Below are positions 61,864 to 63,819 of a stretch of 64,000 bases of DNA, in pieces. The notes beneath the pieces are model-generated. The model did no database searches, was not told the origin of the DNA, and was given only the letters and a program-made list of their open reading frames with translations. Within the stretch, counting starts at the first letter, position 1. Each line of letters starts with the position of its first letter. This DNA is from an uncultured archaeon (GTDB lineage Archaea; Asgardarchaeota; Thorarchaeia; Thorarchaeales; Thorarchaeaceae): contig CAYHAA010000010.1 in assembly GCA_964354495.1 (NCBI GenBank), positions 40,522 through 104,521 on the forward strand, read 5' to 3'. The translations under genes were made by a program, and so were the position numbers.

Positions 61864-62913
61864 CTAGAGGGGTATGTTCCCATGCTTCTTGGGCGGTCGC
61901 GATTTCCTCTTGCTTGCCAGCATCTCAAGACCGCTGCATATGACCGGTCGGGTTTCATGCGGGAAGATGACCCTGTCAATGTAGCCAAGTCCTGCAGCAA
62001 CGTAAGGATTGGCAACCTTGTCCCTGTGCTCCTTCACAAACTCGGCTCGCTTCTTCTTCTTGTCCTTTTCAACCTCAATCTCCTTGCGGAAGATGATGTT
62101 GGTCGCACCATCTGGGTCCATGACAGCTATCTCAGCTGTGGGCCATGCGTATACGAGATCCGCTCCGATACGCCGCGAGGACATGACATCGAACGCACCC
62201 CCATAGCCCTTTCTCGTGATGATGATGATAAGAGGAACTGTCGCCTCTGCAAAGGCGTAGAGGATCTTCGCTCCGTGGCGAATGATGCCGCCCCACTCCT
62301 GAGCGGTTCCAGGGAGGTAGCCAGGGAGGTCCATGAAGGTGATGATTGGAATGTTGAAGGCATCGCAAAAGCGGACGAAACAGGCGCACTTGTCTGAGGC
62401 ATTGATGTCGAGAGTGCCTGCGAGATGGGCGGGATTGTTCCCAACAATCCCCACTGAACGGCCATCGAACCTGGCAAAACCAACGACCATGTTCTTCGCC
62501 CAGTGCTCATGGACCTCAAAGAACTCGCCATTATCGACAAGTTTTCGCACGACATCGCGCATGTCATATGGTTTGTTAGGACCGTCTGGGATTAGGTCGT
62601 CGATTGATTCATCAACACTATCAGGGGCGTGACCAGTATCAACTCTCGGTGGTTCCTCGAGATTGTTCTGAGGTATGTAACTGAGGAGTATCTTGGTCTG
62701 CTCAAAACAATGATCCTCATCCTCGCCAGCGAATTGTGCGACACCGCTCACTGAGTTGTGGGTCATTGCACCCCCCAGCTCCTCGAAGGTCACCTCTTCC
62801 CCTGTGACAGTCTTGATGGCATCGCGGCCTGTGATGAACATAATGTTTGTACTCTTAACTATGAATGCGAGATTAGTTCTTTTCTTATTGATGGCGGCAT
62901 TGAATGTACACAT
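61864..62913 (-). pseudogene. N-terminally truncated propionyl-CoA carboxylase beta / methylmalonyl-CoA decarboxylase alpha-like carboxyltransferase (12S-type; C-terminal about 350 aa only)
   Basis: MFITGRDAIKTVTGEEVTFEELGGAMTHNSVSGVAQF corresponds to roughly residue 200 onward of PccB. It ends with the canonical KKHGNIPL. An in-frame stop lies 3 codons upstream of the first Met, so the N-terminal crotonase-fold half is absent. Confidence 0.6.
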
Positions 62914-62946
62914 TGCGTTACATTAATATGGCTTAAAACATAATTA

Positions 62947-63819
62947 TTGCAACAGAGTGTGTATATTATGGTTTCAAAGACTGAGCAGATCTATCTTCAG
63001 ATGCTTGACAAAGGAATCGTTACTTTGGAAGATGTGGACCAAATTGCACATGAAGTCCTTCGTCGCAGAGTCACTCGCGCATACCTTGAGAGTGAATTCT
63101 TAACCCGTCTTCGTAGCGAGGGCAAGGTTCATTCCATCCGTCGTGGGCTATATCACGTTGTTCTCCCATCCGGTGATACTGACACACCAGATCTATTTCT
63201 CGTTGCCTGCAGAGTTCAACCCACTAGCTTCTTGGGATTCCATACTGCATTGGAATTCTATGGTGTTGCTCACTCAGCGTATTACAATGAAATCTACATC
63301 TGTGGACCTGCAAAAAAACGATTCAGACCCTTCACGGTTCACGGTGTCAAGATTAGACCAGTTGTTCTACAAGATAACGAATCAGGTATCAACAATCTTC
63401 AATATAATGAGGAGAGAATCAGAGTTAGTTCCTTAGAGCGTACCTTAATTGATTGTATTGAAAGACCAGAATACTGTGGCGGATGGGAAGAAACACTGAA
63501 CAGCCTGATGAAGGTTGGAAATCTAGATTTCAGAGTAATTCGGCAACTGCTTCTCAAACGAAAAAATCAGTTCCTTTTGCAACAGGTAGGAATTGTTCTA
63601 GACATTTTACGAGAAGCCTCACCACTAATCAGAGAGAGCATCAGTGATCAACAATTGCTTGGATTGACTAAGTATGTCAAGGGATCTGCGAGATACTTCT
63701 TTCAAAATAAAACCAATACACCATACTACAGAGGAAAGAAGGCCCTCCGGTATAATAGACATTGGAGAATGTACGTCCCGGTCTGGCTTACAACTATTCT
63801 AGGGGAAGGGCTTGTTTGA
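62947..63819 (+). CDS. AbiEi-family (type IV toxin-antitoxin antitoxin-like) protein
   Basis: N-terminal wHTH-like segment and SFLGFHTALEFYGV, resembling the AbiEi SALxxHGL motif. It is followed immediately by an AbiEii-like gene. The more likely start is the ATG at 62968. Confidence 0.45.
   Translation: MQQSVYIMVSKTEQIYLQMLDKGIVTLEDVDQIAHEVLRRRVTRAYLESEFLTRLRSEGKVHSIRRGLYHVVLPSGDTDTPDLFLVACRVQPTSFLGFHTALEFYGVAHSAYYNEIYICGPAKKRFRPFTVHGVKIRPVVLQDNESGINNLQYNEERIRVSSLERTLIDCIERPEYCGGWEETLNSLMKVGNLDFRVIRQLLLKRKNQFLLQQVGIVLDILREASPLIRESISDQQLLGLTKYVKGSARYFFQNKTNTPYYRGKKALRYNRHWRMYVPVWLTTILGEGLV

Follow-up and report, generated by a model that had tools for sequence, protein, structure and literature searches.

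Toxin-antitoxin and defense cassettes have probably entered repeatedly behind the acyl-CoA carboxylase gene pccB in Thorarchaeota-like Asgard archaea, leaving pccB-anchored arrays as the mark of these entries. In the window (the whole 64,000-nt stretch of DNA that we analyzed), a 349-codon reading frame for the C-terminal part of a carboxyltransferase adjoins an AbiE pair. A preliminary description made from the same DNA had taken it for the remnant of a metabolic gene destroyed by an insertion. Our findings suggest that this frame is most likely not a remnant left by the destruction of the cell's sole pccB, and that it represents an old 3' portion shunted downstream. It seems likely that cassettes recombined in behind the gene through pccB homology, much as in the C-terminal displacement known for Rhs, and that tails were displaced repeatedly in the process.

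The reading frame (61864..62913, minus strand) encodes a PccB/MmdA-family carboxyltransferase without its first ~165–190 residues, and, as already noticed in the preliminary description, an in-frame TAA (62923–62925) lies three codons 5' of its ATG. Pfam Carboxyl_trans (PF01039) was matched with E=2.7e-124, residues 13–347 corresponding only to model positions 153–493 of 493, and the frame is thus not a complete two-domain carboxyltransferase of about 510–530 aa. The match to NCBIfam mmdA (TIGR01117; model positions 174–512 of 512) reached 515 bits, under the cut-off of 998.8 because the protein is truncated. The frame had been said to begin at about residue 200 of the family. The loss of the N-terminus stands, and the position needs adjustment: compared with 515-aa homologues, the fragment aligns over residues 168–515 (83.6% identity to the homologue P0005), the M of its MFITG motif corresponds to about residue 191, and pccB homology becomes unambiguous only at ~codon 190 (62841), likewise at the DNA level. 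The 22 codons 5' of this point, which have 5/24 identities to pccB codons 168–190, are given to the annotated frame by an AT-rich filler (Table 1), and its first two codons belong to sequence that is also found, in conserved form, upstream of AbiE in a relative, contig L136.

Among 95 full-length homologues, 142 columns show conservation of 97% or more. The fragment carries nine substitutions at these columns (P30R, V32A, R178C, V196L, T230I, G266D, L292F, Y296H and F300V, of which G266D falls in the AVMGP motif), while the homologues average 0.42 and have no more than 4. The near-invariant residues of a functional acyl-CoA carboxylase carboxyltransferase are thus not all conserved. Judged by its sequence, the fragment is an intact reading frame and yet a decaying 3' copy of pccB, which agrees with the earlier view of it as a dead C-terminal piece insofar as it is dead or decaying. 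We give almost no credence to the idea that the truncated frame is functional in itself, whether as a C-domain subunit, as half of a split gene or as a silent donor for gene conversion of pccB. Fragments of ~330–380 aa do keep intact frames in several lineages, and some long ones (P0032, P0041, P0076) have only 0–2 substitutions at conserved sites. However, the substitutions in the window copy include the AVMG glycine, the frame begins partway into the N-terminal domain and not between domains, it takes its start codon from the region upstream of AbiE, the window holds no N-terminal half that could be its partner in a split gene, and the shorter tails are plainly decaying.

On the opposite strand, 33–54 nt from the fragment frame (about 30 bp in the preliminary description), starts the first gene of an AbiE operon. 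The AbiEi product matched Pfam AbiEi_1 with 27.8 bits (cut-off 22.2) and PADLOC AbiEi with 137.9 bits over residues 8–276 of 283, and its homologues carry the name AbiEi in Thorarchaeota and Freyarchaeota. AbiEii starts 56 nt past the AbiEi stop codon, or with a 4-nt overlap if a TTG start is used, and runs off the window as had been stated. The rest of the gene was supplied by the Logan contig L001, whose 1663-nt overlap with the window shows 100% identity, and the gene ends at window-equivalent position 64778. The full product of 300 aa matched PF08843 with 57.2 bits (cut-off 22.5) and PADLOC AbiEii with 111 bits over residues 3–291, and contains LIGGAAF and TMDADF, which we take to be the nucleotidyltransferase catalytic motifs hGG/S and DxD. 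With an AbiEi-family antitoxin gene, an AbiEii (DUF1814) gene directly 3' of it in the same operon and the catalytic motifs, the neighbors of the fragment are a bona fide AbiEi/AbiEii pair, a predicted toxin-antitoxin system, so that the earlier assignments hold up in profile searches.

The AbiE cassette extends from 62907 to about 64891. Its GC content (41.5%) is lower than that of the window (48.2%) or of the pccB fragment (53.5%). Its conserved upstream region (62907..62967) happens to contain both the fortuitous ATG (62911–62913) and the TAA of the fragment frame. The junction between fragment and AbiE was reproduced in three independent assemblies (L001–L003), and an assembly artefact was rejected because the same junctions recur in independent assemblies, here and in L004–L008. 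The exact AbiEi protein was gene-called on three Logan contigs reaching no further than 64940. Scans of genome contigs and metagenome contigs with AbiEii gave no match, and a search for contigs encoding exactly the fragment protein (with either of two starts, or as P0001) retrieved none.

Having searched the window and its extension by tblastn and with an nhmmer tail profile, we found exactly four pccB tails, all on the minus strand (E from 1e-36 to 2e-8), and no others. Three lie in the window and comprise codons ~168–515, 471–515 and 472–515. The fourth is a pccB 3' end at window-equivalent 64892–64940, 113 nt past the AbiEii stop codon and on the same strand as the fragment. This copy is known from its last 49 nt only; it is probably the intact resident gene, but it could instead be another fragment, as in contig L009, where a long fragment follows VapBC. 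No full-length pccB occurred on the window's contig in the cluster listings, and resident genes guessed from the C-terminal sequence (P0015, P0023) matched other genomes (L134 and the CRISPR-bearing L140), not this one. Along the minus strand, from >64.9 to ~55.0 kb, the order is thus the pccB copy, AbiE, tail 168–515, a membrane-protein cassette, tail 471–515, a regulator/GNAT cassette and tail 472–515 (Table 1). With distance from the presumed intact copy, tail identity runs from 84% in an intact frame through 60% in frame to 63–67% in the last tail, in which a frameshift has occurred and the stop codon is gone. The tails end in a conserved ...RPPKKHGNIPL, and cargo begins past the stop codon. 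The 270-aa membrane protein had no Pfam, PADLOC or NCBIfam match. A 19-nt match at 56670 that resembles the stop-codon junction was dismissed, the tail profile having no match there. Elsewhere in the window, a mirror-image 5' partial duplicate flanks cargo at an oadA/pycB-like gene, which indicates that Campbell-type duplications are not confined to pccB.

Table 1. Features of the pccB tail array in the window
Feature	Position	Strand	Basis
Third, oldest pccB tail, codons ~472–515	55007..55142	-	tblastn 63–67%/30 aa; nhmmer E=1e-25, model 4–134
Cargo block between second and third tails	55143..60751	-	Pfam, PADLOC
462-aa protein, no known family	55117–56505	-	ORF
GNAT acetyltransferase	56372–57445	-	Pfam GNAT
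CARF/Csa3-like regulator	57336–58163	-	PADLOC CARF3-CARF 381.9 bits, full length
571-aa double-wHTH protein	58401–60116	-	Pfam HTH_24/AsnC, MarR_2
Second displaced pccB tail, codons ~471–515 + stop	60752..60889	-	tblastn 60%/45 aa, E=2e-11; nhmmer E=5e-21
Cargo: 270-aa predicted multi-pass membrane protein	60931..61743	-	between two pccB tails
Displaced pccB 3' copy, codons ~190–515 + stop	61864..62841	-	PF01039; tail profile 61865–62001, E=1e-36
AT-rich filler, 65 nt, gap between pccB fragment and AbiE	62842..62906	-	GC 33.8%
AbiE operon conserved upstream region, presumed promoter; cassette left edge	62907..62967	+	blastn to L136 begins 62907
AbiEi antitoxin/transcriptional regulator, 283 aa	62968 (ATG) or 62947 (TTG) to 63819	+	Pfam, PADLOC
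AbiEii nucleotidyltransferase toxin gene, 5' part	63876..64000	+	Pfam AbiEii PF08843, PADLOC

The arrangement recurs across lineages. In Thorarchaeota relatives, an intact pccB of 515–517 aa is followed by same-strand 3' fragments of varying length with small cassettes between them, whose cargo includes VapBC, HicA, HepT/MNT, a methylase, a CARF regulator and surface proteins. Multi-copy loci numbered 22, with 62 copies (contigs L004–L009, L090, L093, L094–L133 and L136); the copies share one strand in every locus, 43 of 51 fragments extend to at least residue 510, and wherever a full copy is visible the fragments lie only downstream of it. Of 29 Thor-type loci that include a full copy, 12 had extra tails, whereas none of 78 control pccB loci did (Fisher p=2e-8), the controls being loci among the matches listed in the genome-contig scan with the fragment, mostly bacteria, and 77 of the 78 coming from other prokaryotes. 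In contig L136, an intact pccB of 517 aa is followed immediately, in the geometry seen in the window, by an orthologous AbiE cassette (78% nt identity to window 62907–64926 in a 2032-nt blastn alignment). L134 and L135 keep the window's flanking synteny (Aminotran_1_2, BKACE, PYC_OADA, BCCP, thiolase) and have a single pccB with no fragments, and this is the unoccupied site; the AbiE homologue of that genome is located elsewhere. The window and L004–L009 have no cargo in common.

These loci bear directly on the interpretation in the preliminary description, namely that a single insertion of a toxin-antitoxin module or larger island in the 5' half of the sole pccB inactivated the gene and left a dead C-terminal stump, the missing 5' half being lost or lying on the island's far side. 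The decaying fragment does lack its first ~165–190 residues where it adjoins the AbiE pair, and no N-terminal pccB sequence exists in the whole 64-kb window. However, what follows AbiEii on L001 is a pccB 3' end and not a 5' half, and the extension past 64000, where the other boundary of an island had been expected, revealed neither such a boundary nor an N-terminal half. This fourth tail largely refutes a single insertion, and two more tails lie downstream of the fragment. Since fragments sit behind an intact pccB in relatives, and since AbiE in L136 abuts an intact gene, past its stop codon and not within it, the gene was most likely not lost. We therefore regard a single destructive insertion as quite improbable. 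The site is a scar of rearrangement, as had been proposed, and specifically one of recombination.

Same-strand direct repeats are also what a tandem duplication of pccB would give, with subsequent deletion, decay and unrelated insertions but no incoming DNA. Such a purely internal origin is extremely unlikely, as the resident gene is often less similar to the fragments than is pccB from other lineages: in L004 the fragments are 91–92% identical to P0005, as against 82% for the full gene of L004, and fragment and resident share ~75–80% at the nucleotide level. Further, the AbiE cassette differs in GC content from its surroundings, and identical cassettes with flanking tail segments occupy different array positions in L004 and L009. 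The crossovers have left mosaics. Between codons ~150 and ~445, the full genes of these two contigs are 100% identical in DNA, and past this stretch identity drops to 80–85%. The L004 full copy, in its last ~50 codons and the cargo downstream, is almost an exact match to the L009 fragment f453. The two HicA-linked f453 fragments have the same sequence in their 5' parts and different 3' parts. Whole cassettes also distinguish near-clonal strains, and the breakpoint falls within a tail: L004 and L005 share 99.8% identity across 14.4 kb, begin to differ at codon ~463–478 of a pccB fragment, and lose all homology at the stop codon of that fragment.

Direct repeats of a target's 3' part that bound each element, as seen here in the four tails and the 22 multi-copy loci, could also arise by site-specific integration. 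Degraded or non-autonomous elements with an att site in the pccB 3' end would have been inserted by a tyrosine or serine recombinase, their tandem accretion giving repeated tails as in cis-mobilizable elements or tycheposon remnants. Arrays with partial tRNAs and integrase-less remnants are known, the tails share one strand and nearly all reach the stop codon, starts cluster at ~codons 470–500 and crossovers recur at ~codons 455–480. Nevertheless, we consider this mechanism unlikely. The repeats range from 13 to 373 codons, their 5' ends span codons 143–503 instead of marking a fixed strand-exchange core, and the crossovers at ~455–480 lie upstream of the starts of the shortest repeats (498–503), so that one fixed core cannot explain both. 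Homology sometimes continues ~55 nt, or by a whole 64-aa gene, beyond the stop codon. Neither integrase nor transposase appeared among the Pfam and PHROGs families listed for the window ORFs and for 59 cargo ORFs of the arrays, the scans giving the top 25 families per batch, among which a weak integrase match could be missed. No IMG/VR viral contig carried the fragment, either Thor-type pccB tail motif, a 529-aa cargo protein or AbiEii.

Cumulatively, we favor repeated, homology-driven capture behind the gene. The incoming DNA would consist of a pccB 3' piece with foreign cargo, either as a circle looped out of another array or as a linear piece with a cassette and two flanking pccB repeats, and would recombine with a resident pccB copy by a crossover within pccB homology, often at ~codons 455–480. 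Such an event would leave a full-length gene whose tail is new, followed first by the cargo and then by a pccB copy lacking its 5' part. In the window, entry of the AbiEi/AbiEii cassette would have shunted the old tail downstream, a 3' tail traveling together with the cargo that lies downstream of it, and repeated events would give a string of tails that then decay. Addictive or defensive cargo (AbiE, VapBC, HicA, HepT/MNT, methylase, CARF regulator, CRISPR) may tend to persist. We infer that host homologous recombination, and not a dedicated recombinase, does the joining.

Several observations weigh against this scheme. No circular or episomal form of the cassettes was observed. Fragment starts cluster at ~codons 143–168 and 470–500, which purely random illegitimate first events do not predict and which might reflect preferred sites or a recombinase; a trans-acting recombinase encoded elsewhere may conceivably be the actor. 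The left edge of the AbiE cassette is the same in the window and in L136, and yet the adjoining fragments differ (168–515 vs ~470–515), so a rule that the fragment start travels with the cargo needs a later deletion. Nor is identity always lower at greater distance from the full copy (L009, L090), which implies that insertions are not restricted to the intact copy. More speculatively, and with considerable doubt, the pccB 3' end could be a dedicated, lineage-wide platform by which Thorarchaeota capture toxin-antitoxin and antiviral modules, analogous to an integron or a tycheposon island. It would be served by an unrecognized trans-acting recombinase or by a homology-driven shuttle of looped-out circles between cells, and, if real, would be a main route for the spread of defense genes among Asgard archaea.

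How Asgard archaea acquire and exchange accessory genes is poorly known, and the locus offers a concrete, recurrent insertion site for which before and after states are at hand: an unoccupied site, AbiE behind an intact gene, and near-clonal strains one cassette apart. Should this site prove general, runs of pccB tails would be a simple marker for defense and toxin-antitoxin cargo in Thorarchaeota metagenomes and could date successive acquisitions. For annotators, truncated genes of ~330–380 aa called "acyl-CoA carboxylase subunit beta" in Thorarchaeota-like genomes represent displaced tails and not metabolic loss; the repeated tails also fragment short-read assemblies.

Our literature search found no description of a pccB-anchored array, and the likenesses to known systems are partial. 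AbiE, a type IV toxin-antitoxin and abortive infection system, is known from Lactococcus and Streptococcus agalactiae, and MenT-like nucleotidyltransferase toxins offer a related comparison. The pair described here has the same two-gene operon with the antitoxin first, a full-length AbiEi profile match and a DUF1814 nucleotidyltransferase with GG and DxD motifs. It differs in being an archaeal (Thorarchaeota-like) version, predicted from sequence and with only 27.8 bits to Pfam AbiEi_1, and in being cargo of a pccB-anchored cassette. Chromosomal integrons are strings of small, recombinase-less cassettes rich in toxin-antitoxin, acetyltransferase and unknown genes beside a fixed platform. The pccB array is likewise a long string of small cassettes, often of single genes with no recombinase, adjacent to a fixed platform; however, no IntI was found among the listed families, attI and attC-bounded cassettes do not appear to be present, the cassettes are separated by stretches of a coding gene, and recombination seems to be homology-dependent.

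Integrative elements also accumulate in tandem at the 3' ends of tRNA or protein genes, as in the accretion of ICESt and CIME at fda. Further examples are the integrated elements of thaumarchaea (PMC6563490) and the tycheposon islands of Prochlorococcus with their partial tRNAs (bioRxiv 10.1101/2020.12.28.424599). As in these systems, a gene end is reused at the pccB locus, the 3' part of the target forms direct repeats between cargo modules, newer insertions push older ones outward, and remnants with no integrase carry defensive or adaptive cargo. In contrast to them, no integrase was detected in the pccB arrays among the families listed, the repeats reach 1.1 kb, crossovers are unfixed, and the cassettes are very small (1–5 kb, often a single operon).

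The closest comparison is that with Rhs, MafB by analogy, and the 'orphan' modules of CdiA, which form similar displacement arrays. For Rhs arrays, re-integration by homologous recombination of a looped-out circle with a variable length of conserved sequence is the proposed model (Jackson et al. 2009, PMC2935791). There, the displaced part is the variable toxin tip of the protein with its cognate immunity gene, neither of which is present in the pccB array. Here, a housekeeping enzyme in an Asgard archaeal host is the anchor, its conserved tail is regenerated, and unrelated cargo follows the stop codon. The relatives share with Rhs an intact gene followed by same-strand 3' fragments with conserved parts of variable length; the window has the fragments together with the last 49 nt of what is probably the intact head copy. 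On the reading favored here, incoming DNA displaces the incumbent tail in both systems and does not delete it.

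The truncated pccB ORF (PccB/MmdA-family carboxyltransferase), with an in-frame TAA three codons 5' of its ATG, was matched by Pfam Carboxyl_trans (E = 2.7e-124) over model positions 153-493 of 493 and by NCBIfam mmdA over positions 174-512 of 512, which bears out its preliminary description as a C-terminal piece of the gene with an upstream stop. Its exact protein, P0001, is also recorded on a 110,015-nt NCBI contig, and its nearest full-length relatives (515-518 aa, 79-84% identity), named at source as Thorarchaeota/Promethearchaeota acyl-CoA carboxylase beta subunit or methylmalonyl-CoA carboxyltransferase, align with it from residue 168 to 515. 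Firm pccB homology begins only at about codon 190 (MFITG, 62841); the 22 codons 5' of this motif are scarcely pccB-like and lie within a 65-nt stretch of 34% GC, and the ATG itself falls inside the conserved upstream region of the adjoining AbiE operon. At 142 near-invariant columns (conservation of at least 97% across 95 full-length homologues) the fragment carries 9 substitutions, including G266D in the AVMGP motif, vs. a mean of 0.42 and a maximum of 4 in the homologues themselves. Because these substitutions come on top of a missing N-terminal third and a borrowed start codon, we read the fragment as a non-functional remnant, as had been proposed. Some long pccB fragments in other lineages are still pristine (0-2 conserved-site changes), and we read them as recently displaced rather than functional.

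The AbiEii sequence was completed from L001, a Logan contig that is 100% identical to the window across 1663 nt and reaches position 64940. Both AbiEi and AbiEii exceeded the Pfam cut-offs and gave full-length PADLOC matches which, taken with the family matches to the fragment, confirm the basic observation. The preliminary description had further placed the AbiE module, or a larger island, as an insertion into the 5' half of pccB. On L001 the sequence past 64000 leads, 113 nt beyond the AbiEii stop codon, into the end of a further pccB copy, comprising its final 15 codons plus stop (...KRKSRPPKKHGNIPL*). This copy has the orientation of the fragment and is distinct from it, since 4 of 49 nt differ. 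In L136, a contig of a relative, an orthologous cassette (78% nucleotide identity across window positions 62907-64926; 72% for AbiEi and 79% for AbiEii proteins) has the same geometry, with a 122-nt spacer between the end of AbiEii and the 3' end of an intact 517-aa pccB, and is bordered on its other side by a different short, decayed pccB tail from about codon 470. L134/L135 (GCA_046758445.1) share the wider synteny of the window (pccB, then Aminotran_1_2, BKACE, PYC_OADA carboxylase, BCCP and thiolase) and have a single pccB with no fragments at this locus; the site is thus unoccupied. Based on these two comparisons, the copy just past the window, known from its last 49 nt, is most likely the resident intact pccB. 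The genome with the unoccupied site has its AbiEi/AbiEii pair, 72% identical, between the genes for pyruvate kinase and enolase (L137, JBHIAE010000008.1, 1740-3538), and this location, different from that in L136, argues for the pair being a mobile module that moves between unrelated chromosomal sites.

Each of the three Logan contigs with AbiE has its start (62338 or 62351) inside the pccB fragment. One ends within AbiEii, the other two only after 49 nt of the next pccB tail. Such contig ends inside pccB copies indicate that repeated, polymorphic pccB sequence breaks short-read assemblies, which may account for the lack of a full-length pccB record on the 110-kb contig.

The window plus its extension was searched with a nucleotide profile of 53 distinct tails (3' ends) of Thor-type pccB (Thorarchaeota-like, judged by the source names of homologues), which detected exactly four sites (E = 1e-36, 1e-25, 5e-21 and 2e-8) and no other pccB tail. 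The cargo between the tails consists of the AbiE pair, a 270-aa membrane protein, and a third block with a double-wHTH protein, a CARF/Csa3-like regulator, a GNAT acetyltransferase and a 462-aa unknown protein. No CRISPR array or cas gene figures in the annotation of the window. Elsewhere, a giant ORF contains about 18 internal repeats spaced ~249 nt, between ~30.5 and 35.0 kb, seen as antisense ORFs matching one another at 31-48% identity.

Coordinates of the pccB array and of other features in the window
Feature	Position	Strand	Remarks
Giant ORF, 3349 aa	27203-37252	-	
PYC_OADA/HMGL-like carboxylase gene (oadA/pycB-like), 528 aa	39191-40777	-	intact
ORF	41280-41867		no family match
ORF	41956-43596		no family match
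PYC_OADA 5' duplicate, residues 1-96	43694-43981	-	86% aa identity to intact gene
pccB tail, codons ~472-515	55007-55142	-	frameshifted, stop gone
CARF/Csa3-like regulator, full-length	57336-58163	-	PADLOC CARF3-CARF 381.9 bits
571-aa protein, two wHTH regions	58401-60116	-	adjoins CARF regulator in pccB array
pccB tail, codons ~471-515	60752-60889	-	60% identity, in frame, stop kept
pccB fragment ORF, 349 aa	61864-62913	-	Pfam Carboxyl_trans, NCBIfam mmdA
AbiEi	62968-63819, or from TTG 62947	+	above Pfam cut-off; PADLOC 137.9 bits, full-length
AbiEii	from 63876, past window end	+	above Pfam cut-off; PADLOC 111 bits, full-length

The homologues included several truncated pccB proteins (332-379 aa), whose contigs were examined. 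In five independent assemblies (L004-L008) a 515-aa pccB adjoining conserved ADH, TPP-enzyme and GSDH genes is followed by same-strand fragments starting at codons 145, 436, 453 and 472; fragments start at 478, 143, 453 and 159 in L009, and at 480, 143, 492 and 412 in L090, which has three 13-codon tails besides. The same pattern was seen in many of 40 further loci from a motif scan of JGI metagenomes, as in L126, where fragments starting at 336, 434 and 481 follow the full gene. Among 22 multi-copy loci (62 copies, 51 fragments), all copies within a locus were on one strand (22/22), 43 fragments reached residue 510 or later and, where a full copy was visible, fragments lay exclusively downstream of it; some of the start points may be common by descent and not independent. 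Extra tails occurred at 12 of 29 Thor-type loci with a full copy vs. none of 78 control pccB loci (Fisher p = 2e-8), the median downstream sequence being only 3.4 kb in the former and 10 kb in the controls, 77 of which came from other prokaryotes and each of which was searched with its own C-terminus.

The cargo between tails in relatives includes toxin-antitoxin types (VapB/PIN, DUF7387-HicA, HepT with a nucleotidyltransferase), an Eco57I-type methylase with a HATPase_c_3 protein, an AriA-like ATPase, NsnB- and mad2-like proteins, NosD/beta-helix and BNR surface proteins, and many unknowns. Another Thorarchaeote has defence cargo at this site too, a CRISPR array (repeat ATTTCAACCCTACTTCTAGTCTGATTCTAAC) that begins about 100 nt past the stop of an intact 517-aa pccB (L140, GCA_016839245.1, JAEOUN010000013.1, 11650-12175). 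In L090 (3027-15892) a near-identical 64-aa membrane-protein ORF comes after every pccB copy, so that the repeated unit there runs beyond the stop codon, and a 13-codon tail (PPKKHGNIPL-type) then follows three of the four ORFs. A fragment in L127 (305-625) has codons 143-167 fused straight to codons 429-515, which suggests that internal deletion of long tails can produce short ones. LAGLIDADG_3-like ORFs lie directly upstream of intact pccB in L009 (5886-7097) and L140 (6099-9911) and are absent from L004; conceivably, these putative homing endonucleases stimulate recombination at the locus.

The closest pairs of relatives bear on how the arrays arise. The full pccB genes of L004 and L009 are identical in DNA sequence from codon ~150 to ~445 and 80-85% identical from there to the end, and the last ~50 codons of the L004 gene together with the next cargo match the L009 fragment starting at codon 453 (f453) and its next cargo. 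The two HicA-linked f453 fragments have common 5' parts and different 3' parts. L004 and L005, 99.8% identical for 14.4 kb, begin to diverge at codon ~463-478 of their f453 fragment and do not align after its stop codon. These mosaics and the L004/L005 breakpoint indicate that the 3' tail of each pccB copy moves together with its downstream cargo, and that crossovers fall inside pccB sequence. A resident copy would recombine, by a single crossover or "ends-in", with DNA bearing a pccB 3' piece and cargo. The outcome would be a complete pccB whose tail is new, followed by the cargo and, behind this, a 5'-truncated copy. In turn, circles of pccB 3' piece plus cargo could loop out between direct repeats within the array, so that arrays could seed arrays; no circular intermediate was observed.

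Integrase-driven integration at a fixed core in the pccB 3' end would fit the clustering of fragment starts near codons 143-168 and 470-500, as well as the AbiE cassette edge that is the same in two genomes beside fragments of different length. We nevertheless consider it less likely, because the repeats are anywhere from 13 to 373 codons long, the crossovers seen lie upstream of the starts of the shortest repeats, no integrase or transposase was among the families listed in scans of the cargo ORFs (the top 25 per batch), and the Thor-type tail was on no IMG/VR contig. A mirror-image arrangement was observed in the window at the PYC_OADA carboxylase gene, whose 5' end is duplicated ~3 kb upstream with two ORFs in between, the upstream copy retaining the native 5' flank (aligning to L134 19266-19560). 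This duplicate suggests that recombination of this kind is a general habit and not the work of an enzyme specific to pccB.

Locally, a gene fragment beside an AbiE system is ordinary; it is the recurrent pccB array that is of note. No description of a pccB-anchored array was found in the searchable literature, which does not prove its absence. The parts are of known kinds, namely an AbiE system, a pseudogene fragment, insertion reusing a gene 3' end, as already described (PMC6563490) and as in tycheposon islands, and displacement arrays. The combination appears new, with an Asgard housekeeping carboxyltransferase gene anchoring a string of small cassettes without a detected integrase. Many of the cassettes are toxin-antitoxin or defence-related, and they are separated by long, variable coding-sequence repeats. 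For displacement arrays of the Rhs type, Jackson et al. put forward the same model of circles and recombination (PMC2935791).
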